A stretch of DNA of 10,030 nucleotides from Candidatus Thorarchaeota archaeon (GCA_029858305.1 JAOUFI010000086.1:1-10030); one strand, 5' to 3'. Positions 1,271-10,030 are shown, counted from the stretch's first letter. A program made the numbers and translations. The notes: generated by a model not told the origin, from the letters alone.

Positions 1271-1828
1271 TCTTACACCAAGGCCCGCCATGAAAATGAC
1301 GCTAATAAACAGTTTCAAAGGAGCACGAAATATGGTCTATGACAGCTAAAATCAGAATGTTTCCGTTTCCAAATTAACTTATGACGATGAATCTATCAAA
1401 AAAAAACGCCTCTCTTTTGGAACATCTCGCAATGATACACCTTTTTTTTGGTCTAAAAGTCATCTAAGCACCAAAACAAACGTGGATACATTATTTAATA
1501 AATAACCATATTTTGGTTACAAAATAATCATCTTCATGATTTTCAAGTTGCACGAACGTTATCCTACATTTCAGATTGAAGTATGTATGAATTGAATCAT
1601 GGAAAGTTGTTTGGGTAACGTTAGCATACTCGGCAAGTATATTGTCCATAAAATTCTAGAAAATTACAAATCAGGTCCCGATTTGATGCACTTGAACGAG
1701 AAAAATTCGTACGCCAAATATGTGGAGTCGCTAAATACGGGAGACCATATTCTATCTTTCAAGTTGCAAAAGGACCATCTCTATAATTTGCTTAGCTTCT
1801 TTTCGTACCTGGTTATGGAGGTCGGCTT
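1271..1828. promoter_or_regulatory. Divergent AT-rich intergenic control region
   Basis: Lies between two divergent genes and is visibly more AT-rich than the coding DNA. Contains A9 (1398-1406), T8 (1442-1449), a TATA-like TTTAATA near 1494, short inverted repeats at 1491-1541 and SD-like GGAGGT at 1817-1822. Exact promoters not assignable. Confidence 0.6.
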
Positions 1829-4579
1829 ATGACTACTGAGAGACAACACAAATCAAAGGTCGGTGGAGGCACCACCGAGATCATGTCCAATGAAGCTCTG
1901 ATTGTCGGTGGCGGCGTTGCAGGTATGCAAGCTGCCATAGACATTGCCAATCAGGGCTTTAAAGTGACTCTTCTCGAGAAGTCTTCTTCCATCGGCGGAG
2001 TAATGGCCCAGATTGATAAGACATTCCCAACATTGGACTGTAGTGCTTGTATTCTAACTCCGCGGCTTAGCGAGGTTTCTCGCCATCCGAATATTGATCT
2101 TCTCACATATTCTGAAATCAAATCAGTGACAGGTGAAACTGGAGATTTCCGAGTCAGAGTTCATAGACATTCACGTTATGTTGATGAGAGCAAGTGCAGT
2201 GGTTGTGGAGATTGTATCCCAGTTTGTCCAGTTGAAGTACCAAATAGATTCGATGGCAATCTTGGATTCAGAAAAGCTATCTATACGCCTTTTCCGCAAG
2301 CAACCCCCAATGTTGTCACTGTTGATAAGAAAGGCGAGCCAGCATGTAGAGCTACATGCCCTGCAGAGGTGAATGCCCAAGGTTTCGTAACCATGATGCG
2401 TCATGGAAAATTCGATGAAGCCTTGGAGATAGTAAGAAGATCAACTCCCTTCCCCGGAGTTCTTGGAAGAGTATGCATTAGCTTTTGCGAGGCTGAGTGC
2501 GAACGGGGTATGCTGGACGAGAGTATAAGCATCAGAAATCTTCACAGATTCCTTGCTGACTATGAACGTGCTCATGAGGTCGCCCCTGTTGAGGCAAATA
2601 TCGATAAGAAAGAGCGTATTGCTGTTGTAGGTGCTGGTCCTGGAGGCATCAGCTGTGCGTATCAACTAGCTCGTATGGGCTATCCAGTAACAGTCTTTGA
2701 AAAACGTGAGAAGGCTGGTGGCATGTTGCGCTATTCCATTCCAGAATACAGATTGCCTCGCGAAATTCTTGATGAAGAGATTCAACGTGTTGTTGATATG
2801 GGTGTGAAGATTAAGACAGGTACAACTGTCAAGTCTCTTCACGATCTCCTTGAGAAAGGTTTCAAGGCAGTCTTCGTTGCCACAGGTGCTTGGGAAAGTA
2901 ACAGACTTGGTATTGCGGGCGAAGAAGTTGATGGAGTAGTTCATGCTATCAAATTCTTAGAGGATGTTAATAATGGAGAGAAAGTGACAGTTGGAGACCG
3001 TGTGGTTGTAGTCGGTGGTGGAGATGCTGCTATCGACTCAGCACGAGTTGCTCGAAGACTCGGTGCAAAGGAAGTCACTCTCGTCTATAGACGGTCCCAT
3101 GTTGAAATTCCTGCTATCCCTAGTGAGGTAGAGGATGCAAAAGCTGAAGGTGTCAAGTTTATGCTTCTTACAAATCCCGTTGAAATTCTCTCATCAAAAG
3201 GTCATATTACAGGCATTCGTTGTGTACGGATGAGACTTGGTGAACCAGATCACTCAGGACGACGCCGACCTGTCCCGATTCCAAACTCAGAGTTCACCAT
3301 GGCTGTTGATGAGATGATTATAGCAGTTGGCCAATCTACTGACCCGAGAGGTCTCCAGACTGAGCTTGAATGCACAGAATGGGGTACAGTTAAGGCAGAT
3401 CCAGTCACGCTTGCAACAAATGTACCAGGCATCTTCGTAGGAGGCGATGTATTCACCGGACCTAACACGGTTGTCAAGGCAGTTGGCCACGGTAAGCATG
3501 CCGCTACCTCGATAGACAGATACATACGCGGTCTTGATCTTATGGAGGGTCGAGCCAAGGATCGCCACCGAGTACAATCGTATGAAGTAGATAAAAGCAA
3601 TATACCCGTTGAGGCTCGTGCGTCAATGCCCAAACAAGGTCTCGAGAGCCGAAAACGTGACTTCTCTGAGGTGGAGCTTGGATTCAATGAAGCACGTGCT
3701 GCTGCAGAAGCAGAAAGATGTCTTGGTTGTGCAGTCTGTTGTGAGTGTGAGCGTTGTGTTGATGCCTGCACTCGAGATGCCATCGACCACCATATGCCTG
3801 ATGAAGTTGTGGACTTACATGTAGGTGCCATTGTGCTGGCAACTGGATACAAACTCTTTGATGTTGCTAAGTATCCCCAGTACGGATATGGCAAGATTCC
3901 AAATGTCATCACAGCTATGGAGTTCGAACGACTGATCAATGCAGCTGGACCAACACATGGACACCTTATTCGCTTAACAGATGGGAAAATTCCTAACAGC
4001 ATTGGATTCGTTCAATGTGTTGGTGCAAGAGATGTTCAGAAAGGTGTTCCATTCTGTTCCAGAGTCTGTTGTATGTATGGAATCAAAAATGCTGTGATGG
4101 CAAAAGAGCACCATCCAGATGCTGATGTGACTGTGTACTATGCTGATATCAGGGCGTTCGGAAAGGGATTTGAAGAATTCTATGAAATGGCTCGAACACG
4201 TTTCGGTGTCAACTTCGTACGTGGCCGTGTTGCTGAGGTCATGGAGGGCAAAAAGAAAAACAAGCTAATTGTTAGAGTTGAAGATACTGAAACTGGCGAC
4301 CTCCATGATGTTGCGCATGATCTTGTAATTATCAGTCCTGGAATTCAACCTCCTGAGGGTCTTGAGGACCTTGCTGTGGAGCTCAATATGGACCTCAGTG
4401 AAGAAGGTTATGTGCAAGTTCATGATGCAGTTTTAACACCTGTTGATACTGACGTACCCGGCGTGTTTGTTGCAGGATGTGCAGATGGACCCAAAGATAT
4501 CCCTGATTCTGTAAGTGCGGGAAGTGCTGCTGCGATGAGAGCCACTATAATCCTGTCGAAAGTGGATAGGGAGGAATAA
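1829..4579 (+). CDS. hdrA: HdrA-like flavoprotein #1: FAD domain plus inserted ferredoxin carrying a GltD/NfnB-like NAD(P)H oxidoreductase module (HdrL-like); lacks the HdrA N-terminal domain and C-terminal ferredoxin
   Basis: HdrA motifs VGGGVAG, IDKTFPTLDCSAC, CSGCGDCIPVCP, FPQATP, QCVG..CSRVCCMY, DIRAFGKGFEEFY, GPKDIPDS. Insert (~2330-3735) has CRATCP, GRVCISFCEAEC, VGAGPGG, GGMLRYSIPEYRLP, VGGGDAAID, VYRRS, EAERCLGC. SD GGAGGT 6 nt before the ATG; alternative start at 1883. Confidence 0.9.
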   Translation: MTTERQHKSKVGGGTTEIMSNEALIVGGGVAGMQAAIDIANQGFKVTLLEKSSSIGGVMAQIDKTFPTLDCSACILTPRLSEVSRHPNIDLLTYSEIKSVTGETGDFRVRVHRHSRYVDESKCSGCGDCIPVCPVEVPNRFDGNLGFRKAIYTPFPQATPNVVTVDKKGEPACRATCPAEVNAQGFVTMMRHGKFDEALEIVRRSTPFPGVLGRVCISFCEAECERGMLDESISIRNLHRFLADYERAHEVAPVEANIDKKERIAVVGAGPGGISCAYQLARMGYPVTVFEKREKAGGMLRYSIPEYRLPREILDEEIQRVVDMGVKIKTGTTVKSLHDLLEKGFKAVFVATGAWESNRLGIAGEEVDGVVHAIKFLEDVNNGEKVTVGDRVVVVGGGDAAIDSARVARRLGAKEVTLVYRRSHVEIPAIPSEVEDAKAEGVKFMLLTNPVEILSSKGHITGIRCVRMRLGEPDHSGRRRPVPIPNSEFTMAVDEMIIAVGQSTDPRGLQTELECTEWGTVKADPVTLATNVPGIFVGGDVFTGPNTVVKAVGHGKHAATSIDRYIRGLDLMEGRAKDRHRVQSYEVDKSNIPVEARASMPKQGLESRKRDFSEVELGFNEARAAAEAERCLGCAVCCECERCVDACTRDAIDHHMPDEVVDLHVGAIVLATGYKLFDVAKYPQYGYGKIPNVITAMEFERLINAAGPTHGHLIRLTDGKIPNSIGFVQCVGARDVQKGVPFCSRVCCMYGIKNAVMAKEHHPDADVTVYYADIRAFGKGFEEFYEMARTRFGVNFVRGRVAEVMEGKKKNKLIVRVEDTETGDLHDVAHDLVIISPGIQPPEGLEDLAVELNMDLSEEGYVQVHDAVLTPVDTDVPGVFVAGCADGPKDIPDSVSAGSAAAMRATIILSKVDREE
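4475..4538 (+). repeat. Direct repeat, copy 1 (63/64 nt identical to 7184-7247)
   Basis: GGATGTGCAGATGGACC[C/T]AAAGATATCCCTGATTCTGTAAGTGCGGGAAGTGCTGCTGCGATGA, aligned by eye; offset 2709. Confidence 0.95.
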
Positions 4580-4584
4580 TCACC

Positions 4585-5109
4585 ATGTCACACGATGAAG
4601 TCAAACAACAACCACCAATCAACCACGCTCCTAGCTCGAACTTTGCCAAAGAAGTTGAGCAGGAGTTTTATGGAGATGGGATAATGAAATGCATTCAATG
4701 TGGGATGTGTACAGCTTCGTGCATGGTCGCAAGCATGACTGAACGATATCGTCCTCGAATGCTTATCCAGAAAATCCTTCTAGGCAAACGTGAGGAAGTC
4801 CTGTCTAGTGAGCTACCGTGGCTCTGCATGACCTGCAGGCTTTGTGAAGAACGATGTCAAGAGGACGTCAACCTATCTGAGATCTTCCACGCGGTACGTG
4901 AGATTGCTGCACGTGAAGGCTATATTCCTCAAGTCTTTAGGAACACGATTAACAAGGTCCTAGAAGATGGTTGGTTGCTCAATGATGCCTATACTGATTT
5001 TGTTGAGGACGACAGATCCGACCTTGGATTAGATCCCAAACTTTCCTGGAACAATGATTTTGTGAAGAAGATCAAGAAACGTTACTTTGAGGGAGTCACC
5101 AAAAAATGA
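4585..5109 (+). CDS. hdrC: Heterodisulfide reductase subunit C (2x[4Fe-4S])
   Basis: CIQCGMCTASC and WLCMTCRLCEERC motifs, 174 aa, directly upstream of hdrB; SD GGGAGG at 4569-4574. Confidence 0.9.
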   Translation: MSHDEVKQQPPINHAPSSNFAKEVEQEFYGDGIMKCIQCGMCTASCMVASMTERYRPRMLIQKILLGKREEVLSSELPWLCMTCRLCEERCQEDVNLSEIFHAVREIAAREGYIPQVFRNTINKVLEDGWLLNDAYTDFVEDDRSDLGLDPKLSWNNDFVKKIKKRYFEGVTKK

Positions 5110-5972
5110 AAGAGTTTGTTCTCTACACAGGATGCACAACTCCTGTTCGATTACCAGCATATGAAGCAGCAGTCACAGTAGTTCTTGAGAAGCTTGGTGT
5201 TCGTCTGATTCCAATGAAGGACGTCAACTGCTGTGGTGCGCAATATATTGAGTCTTTAAGTCATACTGCCTTTGCAGCAATGAGTGGGAGAATCCTTGCC
5301 ATAGCTGAAAGCATGGACCGTGATATACTTGCAATCTGTGGCGCTTGTTCTGGTTCCCTCAAAGCTGTGAAGCACGACCTTGATAGTAATAAAGTGCTTC
5401 GTGCAGAGGTCAACGAGCTTCTGGCAGATGAAGGTCTAAAGTATACTGGTACTGTTGAAGTCAAGCATCTCCTCCAAATCTTCAATGAGGATATTGGTTA
5501 TGATGCAATCAAGGCCGCAATTGTAAAACCATACCATGGCGTACGTTTAGCGGCGCACTATGGGTGCCATGTTACACGACCTCCAGAGATTGTGCATGTT
5601 GATGATCCAGAGAATCCTGTCATTATCGATACCATCATCGAGGCTGCTGGTGCAACACCTGTTGATTATGTTGGAAAGACCCGTTGTTGCGGGGGTCCGA
5701 TGCTGGCAATGGATGAAGAGGTAGCAAACAAGATTGGTCTTGATAAGATTAAAAATATTCGAGATGAGAAGGCTGATGGAATCGTTACTGCCTGCGTGTT
5801 TTGCGATATACAATTGACACAGGTTCAGTTTGGAGACATGGCTGGAGATGAGCCAAAAATACCTGTTTTGACACTTCCGCAATTCCTGGGTCCGGCAATG
5901 GGCATTAATTTTGATTCACTAGGTATTCAACTCAATAAGATTGACCCACAGGCAATTTTACAGGAAATGTAG
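5106..5972 (+). CDS. hdrB: Heterodisulfide reductase subunit B (two CCG domains)
   Basis: YTGC..NCCG..CGAC and HYGCH..RCCGG..CVFC give both complete five-Cys CCG motifs; 288 aa; ATGA overlap with hdrC. Confidence 0.92.
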   Translation: MKEFVLYTGCTTPVRLPAYEAAVTVVLEKLGVRLIPMKDVNCCGAQYIESLSHTAFAAMSGRILAIAESMDRDILAICGACSGSLKAVKHDLDSNKVLRAEVNELLADEGLKYTGTVEVKHLLQIFNEDIGYDAIKAAIVKPYHGVRLAAHYGCHVTRPPEIVHVDDPENPVIIDTIIEAAGATPVDYVGKTRCCGGPMLAMDEEVANKIGLDKIKNIRDEKADGIVTACVFCDIQLTQVQFGDMAGDEPKIPVLTLPQFLGPAMGINFDSLGIQLNKIDPQAILQEM

Positions 5973-5983
5973 AGGAATAGACA

Positions 5984-7282
5984 ATGACCGAAAAGAAACA
6001 AGCAGCATTGATCGTCGGGGGTGGTGTTGCTGGTATGCAGGCCGCGCTCGATATTGCAAGCCAAGGATTCAAGGTCTATCTAGTTGAGAGAACTCCCTCG
6101 ATTGGTGGGAGAATGGCTCAGATTGACAAGACCTTTCCAACACTCGATTGTAGCGCATGTATCTTAACACCAAAACTTAGTGAGGTAGCACACCATAAGA
6201 ACATCACTCTACTCACTTATTCAGAGGTTGGCACAGTCACTGGGAAGTCTGGAGACTTTCGTGTTCGAGTTAGGCGAAAAGCACGCTTTGTGAAGGAGGA
6301 TCTCTGTGCTGGATGCGGCGACTGCGCAGCTGAGTGTCCAGTGGAGATTCCCAACGAGTTCGATATGAACTTAGGCTTTAGGAAAGCCATCTATGTCGGA
6401 TTTCCGCAGGCTACCCCCAATGTATACACTGTGGACAAGGAGAACTGCATAGATTGTGGAAGATGTCTAAAGGTTTGCCAGCGTAATGCTATCGATCTGG
6501 AAATGAAAGATAAGACAATGGATCTCCATGTAGGAGCCATTATCGTTGCAACTGGCTTTGAGCTTTTCGACGTAAGTCAATATCCACGTCTAGGATACGG
6601 ACATTATGCGAATGTAATACATGCAATGGAATTCGAACGGATCATTAACGCTGCGGGACCAACCCATGGACACCTCGTAAGATTAAGCGATGGCAAGAAG
6701 CCCCATAGTATAGGTTTTATCCAGTGCGTTGGGGCAAGAGATGTTCAGAAAGGTGTTCCTTACTGTAGTCGTGTATGTTGCATGTACTCGATTAAAAACG
6801 CCGTAATGGCACTCGAACATTATCCTGATGCTGAGGTGTGGGTTTATTACGCTGATATTAGAGCATTCGGGAAGGGCTTCGAGGAATTTTATGAGATGGC
6901 TAAGAAACGTTTTGGCGTGAAGTTTGTTAGAGGTCGTGTTGCTGAGGTGATGGAGGGTAAGAATACTGGAAACCTTGTTGTCAAGGTTGAGGATACTGAG
7001 AGTTCAAAGGTTCGCCTCATCGAACATGACATGGTAGTGATTAGCCCTGGTGTTATCCCTTCTGAGGGGATGCATACCATGGCCACAAAGATGGGAATTG
7101 AACAGACTGATGATGGTTATGTCCAGATTGACCACTCATTCTTTGGGCCTATTTTAACAAAAGTTCCGGGGGTGTTTGTTTGTGGATGTGCAGATGGACC
7201 TAAAGATATCCCTGATTCTGTAAGTGCGGGAAGTGCTGCTGCGATGAAAGCCACCATTATCCTCAGCAAAGGAGGAGTATAG
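5984..7282 (+). CDS. hdrA: HdrA-like flavoprotein #2: FAD domain plus inserted 2x[4Fe-4S] ferredoxin only
   Basis: VGGGVAG, IDKTFPTLDCSAC, CAGCGDCAAECP, CIDCGRCLKVC, CSRVCCMYSIK, GPKDIPDS. No N-terminal CHCG domain and no C-terminal ferredoxin. Colinear paralogue of #1. Confidence 0.92.
   Translation: MTEKKQAALIVGGGVAGMQAALDIASQGFKVYLVERTPSIGGRMAQIDKTFPTLDCSACILTPKLSEVAHHKNITLLTYSEVGTVTGKSGDFRVRVRRKARFVKEDLCAGCGDCAAECPVEIPNEFDMNLGFRKAIYVGFPQATPNVYTVDKENCIDCGRCLKVCQRNAIDLEMKDKTMDLHVGAIIVATGFELFDVSQYPRLGYGHYANVIHAMEFERIINAAGPTHGHLVRLSDGKKPHSIGFIQCVGARDVQKGVPYCSRVCCMYSIKNAVMALEHYPDAEVWVYYADIRAFGKGFEEFYEMAKKRFGVKFVRGRVAEVMEGKNTGNLVVKVEDTESSKVRLIEHDMVVISPGVIPSEGMHTMATKMGIEQTDDGYVQIDHSFFGPILTKVPGVFVCGCADGPKDIPDSVSAGSAAAMKATIILSKGGV
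7184..7247 (+). repeat. Direct repeat, copy 2 (63/64 nt identical to 4475-4538)
   Basis: Same alignment; single synonymous mismatch at 4492/7201. Confidence 0.95.
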
Positions 7283-7283
7283 A

Positions 7284-9038
7284 TTGTCAGATGCGAAAGA
7301 AGAACCACGAATCGGTGTATTTGTCTGCCATTGCGGCCATAACATAGCTGGTACTGTCAATGTTGCTGCCGTAGCGGAGATGGCAAGACACCTACCACAT
7401 GTAGCTTTTGCAACCGATGAGATGTTCATGTGCTCTGATGCAGGACAGACTCTAATCAAGGAAAAGATCAAGGAGCTCAATCTCAATAGAGTTGTTGTGG
7501 CAAGTTGTTCACCGAGGATGCATGAACCAACATTCCGTCGCGTAGTTGAGGAGGCTGATGTTAATAGGTACTTATTCGACCAAGTTAACCTCCGAGAACA
7601 TGTGAGCTGGTGCCACTCAAGGGAACCCGAGAAAGCAACGGAAAAGGCAAAAGATCTCGTACGCATGTCAGTCGCCAGGGCCGCAAAACTGGAGTACCTA
7701 CCAATTAAGTCAGTGGATGTCATTCCAAAGACTCTTGTCGTGGGAGGCGGCATTGCTGGCTTACGGGCATCTCTAGATATTGCAGAACGCGGCTTCGATG
7801 TAATCCTCGTTGAGAAAGATAGTCAGCTTGGAGGGAATGTAGCAAAGTGGACTCACCTCTTCCCCTCTGATGAGTCTGGTGCACAGGTTATTGGACCACT
7901 TATTCATGACGTGAAGAAGCACAAACGTATTAAAATCCTGGTAAATAGTAAGGTTTCAGAATTTGATGGTTATATTGGGAACTTCGGCGTTACGATTAAG
8001 AATCAAAGCACAGGGAAGGCGCATCGCTACGAAGTGGGTACTGTCATAGTATCTACTGGATTTGAACCTTTCAAGCCTGTTGGATACTACGGCTATGGAA
8101 CCTCTCCCGATATTGTCACTCTTGCTGAACTCCAGGAGATGGAGCCAGGCAAGCAACTTCTCAAATCGAGTGATGGAAAGCCAGTGAAGAAGATCGTCTT
8201 TATTGGTTGTGTTGGTTCTCGAGAGCCAGGTAAGAAAGGTCATGAGCATTGCTCTCGACATTGCTGTTCTGCTACAGCAAAAGCTGCGGGAGACCTCAGA
8301 GACCGTGTTGATGAGGCTCTTGTTCTCTATCAGGATATCAGAACATATGGGAAGGGTCATGAAGAGTTCCACAGGCTTGCTAGGCAGAAGCATGTGATTT
8401 ACAGTAAATTCCCTCAGGATGGGCACCCAGAAGTCGAAGTCAAGAATGGGAAGATCAAACTGAGGTGGTTCGATGTGCTCGGAGGAGTTGAGCTTCAATT
8501 TGAGCCTGACCTACTTGTGCTGGCATCTGCGATGATTCCACCGGTTGATATGGATGAAACTGCAAAAATGTTCAGCCTTACTAGAAGTGGAGACGGATTC
8601 TTTAATCCTGAACACATCAAGCTTGCACCTCTAACAACCCACACCGCTGGAGTAATGATTGCTGGTGCTGCTCAGGCTGCGAAGAACGCATCAGAGTCTG
8701 TGATAGATGCCAGTGGAGCCGCTGCAAAGGCAGTAGGCTTAATGGCTCAAGGCAAGGTGGAGATTGAATCGACGGTCTCGCACGTGCTACCAGATATATG
8801 CTCATCTTGCCACACATGTGTCACAGCTTGTCCCTATGGTGCAATTGCCATGGATGAGGAACATGACCCACCTGTTGCCATAGTTACAGAGGCTAAATGC
8901 AAAGGGTGCGGCACATGTGCAGCCGCTTGTCCAAGTAGTGCAATTGTCATGTATCATTCAACAGATGAGCAGATTCTTACCATGGTTGAGGCGTACTTAT
9001 GCGCAACACCAGGACTACAAGGAGGTGGTTCAGTATGA
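7284..9038 (+). CDS. hdrA: HdrA-like flavoprotein #3: N-terminal Fe-S domain, FAD domain and C-terminal 2x[4Fe-4S] ferredoxin; lacks the inserted ferredoxin
   Basis: EEPRIGVFVCHCG, FMCSDAG, ASCSPRMHEPTF, ATEKAKDLVRM, VGGGIAG, GCVGSR..CSRHCC, CSSCHTCVTACP, CKGCGTCAAACPS. TTG start with GGAGG at 7271-7275. Confidence 0.92.
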   Translation: MSDAKEEPRIGVFVCHCGHNIAGTVNVAAVAEMARHLPHVAFATDEMFMCSDAGQTLIKEKIKELNLNRVVVASCSPRMHEPTFRRVVEEADVNRYLFDQVNLREHVSWCHSREPEKATEKAKDLVRMSVARAAKLEYLPIKSVDVIPKTLVVGGGIAGLRASLDIAERGFDVILVEKDSQLGGNVAKWTHLFPSDESGAQVIGPLIHDVKKHKRIKILVNSKVSEFDGYIGNFGVTIKNQSTGKAHRYEVGTVIVSTGFEPFKPVGYYGYGTSPDIVTLAELQEMEPGKQLLKSSDGKPVKKIVFIGCVGSREPGKKGHEHCSRHCCSATAKAAGDLRDRVDEALVLYQDIRTYGKGHEEFHRLARQKHVIYSKFPQDGHPEVEVKNGKIKLRWFDVLGGVELQFEPDLLVLASAMIPPVDMDETAKMFSLTRSGDGFFNPEHIKLAPLTTHTAGVMIAGAAQAAKNASESVIDASGAAAKAVGLMAQGKVEIESTVSHVLPDICSSCHTCVTACPYGAIAMDEEHDPPVAIVTEAKCKGCGTCAAACPSSAIVMYHSTDEQILTMVEAYLCATPGLQGGGSV

Positions 9039-9481
9039 ACACCGAAGTATCCACATCAATGAAGACAGAAAAAGAATGGGAACCCCGCATAATAGCCTAT
9101 TGCTGCAACTGGTGTTCATATGCTGGGGCAGACTTGGCTGGAACAAGTCGAATACAATATCCAACAAACGCAAGAATCGTCAGAGTGAACTGCACAGGCA
9201 GGCTCAGTCCTGAGTTCGTACTTGCGGCGTTAAACATGGGTGCTGATGGCGTTCTTGTTTCTGGATGTCATCCCGGTGATTGTCACTATACGAGCGGCAA
9301 TCTCAAGGCACGTGCCCGATGGGCACTAATGGAAACAGCGATTGAACAAGCAGGAGTAGATCCAAGAAGGGTACGCTTGCAATGGGCTTCAGCTTCTGAG
9401 GCACAGATTTTCGCTGATGGTGTCAAGGCAATTGTAGAACAAGTAAGAGAACTAGGTCCAATCAGGAGTGAATGGAAATGA
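9035..9481 (+). CDS. mvhD: Methyl-viologen-reducing hydrogenase delta subunit ([2Fe-2S])
   Basis: WEPRIIAYCCNWCSYAGADLAG, VNCTGR, GADGVLVSGCHPGDCHY, WASASE. Start moved to ATG 9035 (ATGA overlap with the hdrA #3 stop; SD GGAGGTG at 9021-9027). Confidence 0.93.
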   Translation: MNTEVSTSMKTEKEWEPRIIAYCCNWCSYAGADLAGTSRIQYPTNARIVRVNCTGRLSPEFVLAALNMGADGVLVSGCHPGDCHYTSGNLKARARWALMETAIEQAGVDPRRVRLQWASASEAQIFADGVKAIVEQVRELGPIRSEWK

Positions 9482-9714
9482 GTAAGATGTTTGTAAACTT
9501 CTTTAGTCAGAAACGCAGTGAAGTTAGAAAACAACGTAAGACGATTGAAGAGGTTCTGCAGGGCGGGCCCTCTACAGTATCCAAGATCGCAGAAGCAACT
9601 GGTTTCGAGAAGAACCTGGTTGTTTGGAATCTAATGGGCATGCTACGCTGGGGTGTTGTAGAGGTTGCTAGTGAGGAGGGTGATGAGCTAACCTACATTC
9701 TAAAGGAGGCTTAA
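9478..9714 (+). CDS. Small winged helix-turn-helix protein (78 aa)
   Basis: IEEVLQGGPSTVSKIAEATGFEKNLVVWNLMGMLRWGVV..Y fits the ArsR/MarR-like wHTH pattern. ATGA overlap with the mvhD stop; GGAGTG at 9465-9470. Confidence 0.75.
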   Translation: MSKMFVNFFSQKRSEVRKQRKTIEEVLQGGPSTVSKIAEATGFEKNLVVWNLMGMLRWGVVEVASEEGDELTYILKEA

Positions 9715-9716
9715 TA

Positions 9717-10030
9717 CTGTCCAATCCCGTTTCTATCGCTATGGCTCAGGGCAGCTCTTGCTGGGGATGTTTCCAGAGCCTAGTAGATATTCATCTCAAT
9801 CTAGCAACTGTTCTACCAGCTCTTGAGATAAAGTATTGGCAGGCGGTAGCTGATTTTAAACTCCATCACTTAGAGAGTTATAATGACAAGTCCATTGTAG
9901 TAGGACTCTTTGAAGGGATGGCGAGAACTGAAGAGGATATTCATCTTCTGAAGCTCATGCGTAACAAGTGTCAGATTCTGATTGCTTTCGGCTCCTGTTC
10001 ATGCTTTGGCGGAATTCCAGGTCTGGCAAG
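9717..10030 (+). CDS. mvhG: [NiFe]-hydrogenase small subunit, MvhG type (5' part, runs off the window)
   Basis: Manual translation: (M)SNPVSIAMAQGSSCWGCFQSLVDIH..VADFK..LFEGMARTEED..MRNKCQILIAFGSCSCFGGIPGLA, with the N-terminal CxxC, EG and GxCxxxGGIPGL motifs. Follows mvhD. Probable CTG start; first in-frame ATG is at 9741. Confidence 0.88.
   Translation, partial: MSNPVSIAMAQGSSCWGCFQSLVDIHLNLATVLPALEIKYWQAVADFKLHHLESYNDKSIVVGLFEGMARTEEDIHLLKLMRNKCQILIAFGSCSCFGGIPGLA

Follow-up and report, generated by a model that had tools for sequence, protein, structure and literature searches.

One putative arm subunit and two alternative HdrA cores encoded in an mvh-hdr operon of Candidatus Thorarchaeota

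In this work, we analysed a 10,030-nucleotide (nt) stretch of DNA from a Candidatus Thorarchaeota archaeon (GCA_029858305.1 JAOUFI010000086.1:1-10030; the whole stretch is called the window below), which bears three hdrA genes together with hdrC-, hdrB-, mvhD- and mvhG-like genes. The hdrA genes were designated hdrA#1, hdrA#2 and hdrA#3, and their products #1, #2 and #3. With moderate confidence, we regard the locus as an mvh-hdr operon of Thorarchaeota type; the HdrA that methanogens make as a single four-domain protein would here be split into one arm subunit (#3) and two alternative core subunits, one with an NfnB/GltD insert (#1) and one without it (#2).

The three hdrA genes share out the domains of one HdrA

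Each of the three hdrA genes covers only a part of the NF040770-type model, and their best scores against the NCBIfam HdrA/HdrA2 models, 578, 582 and 540 bits, lie far below the full-length cut-off of 1100 bits (NF040770). When compared with solved HdrA chains, the pieces gave E values from 1e-138 to 1e-154, and a thioredoxin-reductase-fold flavin adenine dinucleotide (FAD) core like that of solved HdrA is present in #2, in #3 and, via its two flanks, in #1.

The alignments clearly show how the domains are distributed. The #2 protein aligns to residues 144–569 of 5odc_A alone (E 3.2e-154), that is, to the FAD core with the inserted ferredoxin and without the terminal domains; its C56 and C59 correspond to Cys194 and Cys197 of 5odc_A, and the equivalents in #1 are C71 and C74. 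The #3 protein aligns to residues 7–244 and 322–653 of 8rvu_a (E 2e-142), skipping the inserted ferredoxin, and has Ser and Gln at the positions of Cys194 and Cys197. Among the open reading frames (ORFs) of the window, #3 alone has the HdrA N-terminal domain, with the cluster cysteines C15, C17, C50, C75 and C110, and it ends in a 2x[4Fe-4S] ferredoxin domain with eight cysteines (C506–C549). These five N-terminal and eight C-terminal cysteines are invariant among 19 orthologs. The core cluster cysteines of #3 are C309/323/327/328.

No single gene encodes all four HdrA domains in one polypeptide; the set is complete when #1 or #2 is combined with #3. Adjacent genes are complementary with respect to the N-terminal domain and Cys197, as in the heterodimer type of Chadwick et al. 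(2022; PMC9012536). The preliminary description of this DNA, made from the sequence alone, had taken #1 and #2 for alternative versions of the same half of HdrA and #3 for the only complementary half. The domain maps and the complementarity of the Cys pair and the N-terminal domain bear out the first statement, and the second holds within the window.

The two cores are old paralogs that differ by an NfnB/GltD module

BLASTP aligned #1 and #2 in two gapless blocks, one of amino acids (aa) 23–168 with 8–153 (75% identity) and one of aa 637–911 with 155–429 (69% identity), thereby reproducing the colinearity proposed earlier, with offsets of 4110 and 2709 and a net difference of 1401 nt (467 aa). 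At the first, second and third codon positions, the identity was 0.75/0.86/0.36 in the first block (146 codons) and 0.76/0.85/0.41 in the second (275 codons). The earlier observation of similar proteins with diverged third positions was likewise correct, the identity being 69–75% for the proteins vs 36–41% for the third positions. This indicates that #1 and #2 are old duplicates kept by selection. Both cores are under purifying selection and keep all cluster cysteines, i.e., the pair C71/C74 and the core cluster C730/743/747/748 in #1, and the pair C56/C59, the ferredoxin motifs C108–118 and C155–165 and the core cluster C248/261/265/266 in #2. A recent duplication followed by homogenisation through gene conversion was also considered, and is ruled out by the third-position identity.

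The insert of #1 comprises 468 aa and lies between the first (C123–C133, CxxCxxCxxxCP) and the second (C637–C647) motif of the inserted ferredoxin. It consists of a Fer4_20 two-cluster domain (Pfam, E 9e-20), FAD and NAD(P)H Rossmann domains (Pyr_redox_2, E 3e-53) and a linker. It scores 535.8 bits against PRK12771 of NCBIfam, above the cut-off of 516, and matches Thermotoga maritima NfnB (4ylf_B, E 1.4e-90) and Pyrococcus furiosus NfnI-L (5jca_L, E 3.8e-87) in PDB. No domain of an NfnA partner ([2Fe-2S]/FAD, PyrK-like) was found with Pfam and NCBIfam in the nine scanned ORFs of the window. The #1 protein is not an HdrL proper: the polypeptide stops after the core, and the arm-type part is the product of the separate gene hdrA#3.

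Among the 120 matches listed for #1, 89 others are 546–936 aa long and 60–99% identical and, where the source is named, come from metagenome-assembled genomes (MAGs) of Thorarchaeota, Odinarchaeota, Promethearchaeota or Hermodarchaeota; orthologs of about 915 aa occur in Asgard MAGs at 60–99% identity. The remaining 30 of these matches are of bacterial type, with 1460–1562 aa and 46–52% identity. The 120 matches listed for #3 gave the same taxonomic picture, which points to an Asgard archaeon of the Thorarchaeota kind as the source of the window.

Arm-less cores keep the Cys pair and occur in nature fused to arm-type partners

Related loci were collected by a profile scan of one genome per species, where an alignment of 19 #3-type proteins served as the query. 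The scan gave 602 confirmed matches; the best 80 of them represent 77 loci, which were taken with up to 10 kb of flank on each side, and their ORFs were compared with the proteins and domains of the window. From the ORFs of at least 380 aa in these loci, in the window and in three fetched proteins, we obtained 161 HdrA cores, which were grouped by two features: an N-terminal domain ahead of the core, present or absent, and the kind of segment that separates the two core blocks.

The Cys pair is present in every arm-less core (58/58), both with a plain inserted ferredoxin (37/37) and with an NfnB insert (21/21). It is also present in all 8 full-length NfnB forms and in 30 of the 42 canonical four-domain forms, and in just 2 of the 52 arm-type cores that are without the inserted ferredoxin. 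The core [4Fe-4S] cysteines are kept in 58/58 arm-less and 49/52 arm-type cores.

Furthermore, thirteen proteins of the survey contain two cores. Six of them join an NfnB-bearing core to an arm-type part (1476–1620 aa) and five join a plain core to it (1027–1074 aa); the other two combine an NfnB-bearing core with a canonical HdrA and an insert-less core with an arm. The arm-less core always comes first, just as in the gene order of the window. For instance, residues 915–1473 of the fusion P0093 align to residues 6–572 of #3 with 39% identity. Because fusions of both kinds exist, the two pairings, #1 with #3 and #2 with #3, are found as single polypeptides in other organisms.

Layouts of the related loci

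Among the 17 Asgard loci of the survey, the order of the window, hdrA#1-hdrC-hdrB-hdrA#2-hdrA#3-mvhD(-orf80-mvhG), is complete in five (L001, L003, L005, L006, L008), and two truncated loci (L002, L013) fit it. The preliminary description had proposed a genome survey for precisely this order, and these five complete and two truncated loci are its outcome. The seven loci with both cores span A3 identities of 72–90%.

The other Asgard loci show which parts can be absent or replaced. Two have hdrA#1-hdrC-hdrB-hdrA#3 without hdrA#2 (L004, L017). In the order hdrC-hdrB-hdrA#1-hdrA#3, found in two complete (L007, L012) and two truncated loci (L011 and, with uncertainty, L009), hdrA#1 stands in the place of hdrA#2. 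One locus (L010) has hdrC-hdrB-hdrA#2-hdrA#3 with neither hdrA#1 nor the hydrogenase, and in three (L014–L016) hdrA#2-hdrA#3 adjoin a gene for a full-length NfnB-bearing HdrA. A gap of 260–350 nt separates hdrA#1 from hdrC in L004, L005, L006 and L008.

Chloroflexota show a similar picture: a plain core, an hdrC-like gene (about 380–400 aa) and an arm-type HdrA are found together in about ten loci (L018, L020, L021, L025, L027, L029, L032, L034, L042, L069), and L023, L030 and L076 have an NfnB-bearing core in place of the plain one, as does L053 in a looser sense. The interchange of plain and NfnB-bearing cores at one operon position thus occurs in Chloroflexota too, so that this modularity is general and not an oddity of one genome. 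Taken together, the fusions, the sister loci with a single core and the complementarity of the Cys pair and the N-terminal domain provide comparative support for the pairings of #1 and of #2 with #3 that had been proposed from the window.

Several neighbourhoods deserve a record of their own. The Chloroflexota loci with core, hdrC-like and arm genes often adjoin a gene for a fused HdrL-like protein in the same locus. Two Hdr clusters lie side by side on one Asgard contig (L007, 3605–19466): the first has hdrC-hdrB-hdrA#1-hdrA#3-mvhD-orf80-mvhG, and the second contains two hdrC genes, hdrB, a gene for a full-length NfnB-bearing HdrA (1121 aa), mvhD and the 5′ end of a plain-core gene. In L003, about 7 kb 3′ of the operon (21277–22524), a second mvhD with no hdrA of its own in view is followed directly by a gene for a molybdopterin oxidoreductase (FdhA-like), and these two genes may represent a further input module on the same Hdr core.

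Phylogeny of cores, inserts and arm subunits

A quick IQ-TREE reconstruction (a short search under a simple model, long branches being flagged) was made for 92 cores, which included all 67 arm-less or NfnB-bearing cores, 14 of the 42 canonical and 10 of the 52 arm-type cores chosen at random, and #3 of the window. The plain and NfnB-bearing arm-less cores of Thorarchaeota form one clade of 22 rows, with a support of 100 in the Shimodaira–Hasegawa-like approximate likelihood ratio test (SH-aLRT), in which the #1 proteins of window-type loci (6 rows) and the #2 proteins of such loci (7 rows) are sister groups with a support of 89, unstarred. The label of the NfnB-bearing core needs at least six changes on starred branches. 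Within the limits of a short search and a simple model, these changes rule out that the NfnB insert arose once and was then inherited vertically.

In the tree of 32 NfnB inserts, all 12 Thorarchaeota inserts fall in one clade (99), which includes two inserts from a distant full-length HdrA backbone and covers two distant core lineages. This suggests that the NfnB module has moved between HdrA backbones or has been lost repeatedly.

The arm subunits were placed in a more careful tree of 17 Thorarchaeota #3 proteins and two outgroups, L013 being omitted as its #3 is a fragment. There, L004 (without hdrA#2) and L003 (with the layout of the window) are sister to each other, with a support of 100/99 and within the clade of the window. 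It follows that #2 was lost recently in a close relative, where #1 persists beside the same arm subunit.

The operon and its neighbourhood

The features of the window are collected in Table 1. The plus-strand genes from hdrA#1 to mvhG appear to form one operon, since the gaps between them are 6, 12 or 1 nt or are replaced by overlaps; at the junction of hdrA#2 and hdrA#3, a TAG stop is followed by one base and a TTG start. The gene content is of the MvhAGD-HdrABC type, in which a group 3c [NiFe]-hydrogenase is combined with Hdr, with an hdrB encoding two CCG domains, an hdrC encoding two ferredoxin motifs, mvhD and the start of mvhG. Selenocysteine read-through was considered as an explanation of the gene boundaries and proved unnecessary, all relevant positions being Cys codons.

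Table 1. Positions of the genes and other features in the window
Feature	Position	Strand	Description
OppD-like ABC transporter ATPase	185-1318	minus	377-aa ORF; Pfam/NCBIfam
Intergenic region 5′ of hdrA#1	1319..1828	plus	510 nt between the OppD-like gene and hdrA#1
hdrA#1	1829..4579	plus	916 aa; putative arm-less HdrA core subunit with NfnB/GltD insert; Pfam, NCBIfam
NfnB/GltD-like insert of hdrA#1	2333..3736	plus	aa 169-636
hdrC-like	4585..5109	plus	two CxxCxxCxxxC motifs, C36-46 and C81-91; 8 Cys
hdrB-like	5106..5972	plus	two CCG domains; 10 Cys as two C..CC..CxxC sets
hdrA#2	5984..7282	plus	432 aa; putative arm-less HdrA core subunit, inserted ferredoxin intact
hdrA#3	7284..9038	plus	584 aa; TTG start; putative arm subunit
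mvhD ([2Fe-2S] adaptor subunit)	9035..9481	plus	Pfam FlpD, E 1.2e-50; longer ORF from 8999
80-aa ORF (orf80), conserved	9472..9714	plus	between mvhD and mvhG
mvhG ([NiFe]-hydrogenase small subunit), 5′ part	9741..10030	plus	cut by the window end

The product of hdrC scores 92 bits against TIGR03290 of NCBIfam, where the cut-off is 160. The product of hdrB matches Pfam CCG in two stretches (E 9.6e-26) and scores 243.5 bits against TIGR03288, the cut-off being 345. The mvhD gene likely starts with the ATG that overlaps the stop codon of hdrA#3 as ATGA, and its orthologs have 147–148 aa. The 5′ part of mvhG is recognised by Pfam (Oxidored_q6, E 4.5e-13) and NCBIfam (VhuG, E 4e-20). The mvhA gene lies outside the window; in the related locus L003, a full mvhG (307 aa) is followed by mvhA (NiFeSe_Hases). 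There, the mvhA ORF has 438 aa (L003, 14150–15959), and an 81-aa ORF without a Pfam match lies about 250 nt further on; this ORF might represent a C-terminal portion of the large subunit that is encoded apart or depends on selenocysteine.

The product of orf80 matches no Pfam family and contains no cysteine. The ORF is found between mvhD and mvhG in 9 of the 17 Asgard loci, and the other four loci end earlier; in four more (L010, L014–L016) a related ORF lies directly 3′ of hdrA#3, its versions in L010 and L015 giving helix-turn-helix matches, all of them sub-threshold.

The intergenic region upstream of hdrA#1 contains a TATA-like ctctataatt about 40 nt 5′ of the ATG, with ggaggt just before the start, and is likely the promoter region of the operon. 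A scan of the whole window with Rfam matched no family. In the OppD-like ORF, the ABC domain match begins at residue 110 of 377 and falls in two stretches, so the TTG start may have been placed too far upstream.

Proposed mechanism and alternative explanations

In the Mvh-Hdr supercomplex structures of 2026, one HdrA has a mobile arm that brings the MvhD cluster close to the FAD and the Cys pair of its partner. This FAD passes one electron via the core cluster HA4′ of the partner to HdrB and the other to the isolated shuttle cluster HA3 of the arm, from where it reaches the inserted-ferredoxin clusters HA5′ and HA6′ of the partner (PMC13580544). The same cross-subunit dependence through Cys197 was pointed out by Chadwick et al. 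(2022; PMC9012536). When the window proteins are mapped on this scheme, #3 would provide the arm parts, i.e., the MvhD dock and the shuttle cluster, its own Cys pair and inserted ferredoxin having been lost. All the primed parts would come from #1 or #2 as old core paralogs: the Cys pair, the bifurcating FAD in its fold, the core [4Fe-4S] cluster leading to HdrC and HdrB, and the inserted ferredoxin as the low-potential exit. The heterodimer of a core and an arm would be asymmetric and have a single complete bifurcation path, where the symmetric methanogen dimer has two.

The two cores would then differ in their exit. With #2 and #3, the exit would be an ordinary ferredoxin-docking domain, so that H2 would reduce ferredoxin and a disulfide, or the reverse. 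With #1 and #3, the GltD/NfnB module, bearing two clusters, FAD and an NAD(P)H site, would sit in a surface loop of the exit, directly ahead of its second cluster motif, and would extend the low-potential branch to NADP(H), replacing free ferredoxin or adding to it. We infer from the sequences that core and arm would assemble physically, that both complexes would be present in one cell and that electrons would take the path outlined. The preference for NADPH over NADH, the direction of flow and a disulfide as the substrate are likewise predicted. Going further, one may imagine a combinatorial bifurcating enzyme, in which the hydrogenase-carrying arm is common to two co-expressed cores, and the cell builds both an H2/ferredoxin/disulfide and an H2/NADP(H)/disulfide enzyme, the electron split being set by core occupancy. 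We hold this extension to be possible rather than probable, and both the switching by subunit exchange and the chemistry assumed for it are hypothetical.

Several points weigh against the split-HdrA reading with its two alternative cores. The genes belong to a single operon with near-zero gaps, which suggests no differential control inside it and offers no handle for switching. Moreover, #3 retains its own FAD motif and four-Cys core cluster and so may be more than a passive arm. Several hdrA genes were reported in 16 of 18 Thorarchaeota assemblies (PMC11237513), which means that #1 may have another arm-type partner elsewhere. The reduction of NADP+ from the low-potential branch would waste the gain from bifurcation, and the chemistry may therefore differ: the reaction may be a confurcation, or a further bifurcating flavin may take part, following a suggestion of Chadwick et al. 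for NfnB-bearing HdrA. Finally, neither HdrB nor HdrC reaches the NCBIfam equivalog cut-off of the enzyme acting on the heterodisulfide of coenzymes M and B (CoM-S-S-CoB).

Of the alternatives, one is a larger complex that holds all three HdrA-like proteins, e.g., as two heterodimers joined via HdrBC or the hydrogenase, so that H2, NADP(H), ferredoxin and disulfide would be coupled together. The co-transcription of all genes, as far as their spacing tells, agrees with such an assembly, as does the presence of one hdrCB pair and one mvhD for three hdrA genes, and large supercomplexes are indeed known for the Hdr complexes of methanogens (PMC13580544). However, we consider it unlikely, since close relatives with a single core exist (L004, L017, L010, L007, L012), the natural fusions pair a single core with a single arm (12 of the 13 two-core proteins are core plus arm), and there is a single N-terminal arm, that of #3.

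To a similarly low degree, we expect that #3 serves #2 only and that #1 pairs with an arm-bearing HdrA encoded elsewhere, its place in the operon reflecting co-regulation. Such a partner could be sought among the multiple hdrA genes common in Thorarchaeota assemblies (PMC11237513) or in a cluster like the second one of L007, and in the window hdrA#2 and hdrA#3 are directly adjacent, with hdrCB lying between them and hdrA#1. Yet hdrA#1 is found directly 5′ of hdrA#3 without hdrA#2 in L007 and L012, the order hdrA#1-hdrC-hdrB-hdrA#3 occurs in L004 and L017, and six natural fusions unite an NfnB-bearing core with an arm. In addition, no second arm-type gene was found within 10 kb in the five complete window-type loci, and, as a weaker point, no second locus of those assemblies, which are MAGs, is among the 77 loci that represent the best 80 of the 602 matches.

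Less likely still, #1 or #2 could act as an arm-less homodimer with HdrBC, #1 being, e.g., an NADPH:disulfide oxidoreductase that electrons would enter via the NfnB module, by analogy with the arm-less sHdrA of sulfur oxidisers. A solved arm-less HdrA-like homodimer does match #2 (6tjr_A, 349 aa, E 2e-45), and hdrA#1 adjoins hdrC-hdrB. Against this, the arm-less cores of the survey almost always lie beside an arm-type gene or are fused to it, and the Cys pair that all 58 of them keep is the site to which, in the solved complexes, the arm of the partner comes close (PMC13580544). That one core is a redundant duplicate heading for loss, with no distinct role, is hardly credible despite the absence of hdrA#2 or hdrA#1 from some close relatives, given third positions near saturation, proteins 69–75% identical with every cluster Cys kept, and the retention of both copies in five complete and two truncated loci over A3 identities of 72–90%.

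If the arm subunit #3 is indeed shared by two cores in a combinatorial enzyme, the HdrA family would have its first example of exchangeable partners, and this in the archaeal group closest to eukaryotes. If the layout with three hdrA genes stands for two enzymes on one scaffold, H2 metabolism of Thorarchaeota would have a direct link to both ferredoxin and the NADP(H) pool, which bears on models of Asgard syntrophy. The same reading would also provide a natural minimal asymmetric Hdr bifurcation machine, with one path and with arm and core on separate polypeptides, which suits the dissection of the mechanism.

Comparison with known systems

The preliminary description had supposed that this arrangement is uncharacterised, and this stands in part. 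Full-text searches of the literature yielded no description of one arm-type gene together with plain and NfnB-bearing cores in a single operon, or of this layout in Asgard archaea; the review of HdrA(BC) modules by Appel et al. (2021) may bear on it. The excerpts sampled from Asgard papers mention only MvhADG-HdrABC, or multiple or fused hdrA copies (PMC11237513, PMC11291895, 10.1101/2025.02.26.640444), and treat the complex as a generic "MvhADG-HdrABC" acting on an unidentified disulfide (PMC11291895; 10.1101/2025.02.26.640444). The components, on the other hand, have been described: split HdrA and NfnB-inserted HdrA (PMC9012536), HdrL (PMC2702500) and a joint hdrABC/hdrL cluster (PMC5947623). 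Thus, the parts are known elsewhere, and it is the combination of both cores with one arm subunit in one operon that appears undescribed.

The methanogen MvhAGD-HdrABC complex (5odc, 8rvu, 9sw2-6) has the same subunit families and the same order of electron carriers as the window. It differs in being a symmetric homodimer of a four-domain HdrA that has no NAD(P)H module and acts on CoM-S-S-CoB.

The tandem HdrA pairs of anaerobic methanotrophic archaea (ANME) come close to the split seen here. Chadwick et al. (2022; PMC9012536) described adjacent heterodimer-type pairs with a complementary N-terminal domain and Cys197 and predicted that they form heterodimers; they named HdrA5/6 and HdrA12/13, the fused HdrA3/4 and the HdrA of the Moorella MetFV-HdrABC-MvhD. 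The genes of such pairs are adjacent and the two-fold symmetry is broken, and both #2/#3 and #1/#3 fit this pattern exactly. In contrast to these pairs, the window has two alternative copies with the Cys pair per single copy with the N-terminal domain, and it belongs to an Asgard archaeon with a complete Mvh hydrogenase. The NfnB insert also has a precedent in ANME-1, where HdrA9/10/11 carry NfnB insertions of about 500 aa in the ferredoxin domain (PMC9012536); just as in #1, an NfnB/GltD-type insert of about 470–500 aa splits the inserted ferredoxin domain. The NfnB-bearing HdrA proteins of Methanophagales, Hadarchaeota and Bathyarchaeia in our survey are full-length, with 1110–1172 aa, whereas #1 is arm-less, with 916 aa.

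HdrL of sulfate reducers and syntrophs offers a further parallel for the NAD(P)H module. It was described in 2009 in Desulfobacterium autotrophicum as a fusion of HdrA with a glutamate synthase (GltD) part, followed by mvhD (PMC2702500), so that HdrA, a GltD-type NAD(P)H module and an adjacent mvhD come together as they do in the window. Judging by architecture alone, the bacterial survey proteins of about 1480–1620 aa, in which a #1-like part is fused to a #3-like part, would be HdrL. In Syntrophobacter fumaroxidans, the hdrABC/hdrL cluster Sfum_0819-0824 is expressed under sulfate, and there an HdrA without NfnB and HdrL share one cluster with one hdrBC (PMC5947623), which resembles the presence of both cores in the window. 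The difference is that HdrL is a single polypeptide, whereas the halves encoded in the window are the products of separate genes.

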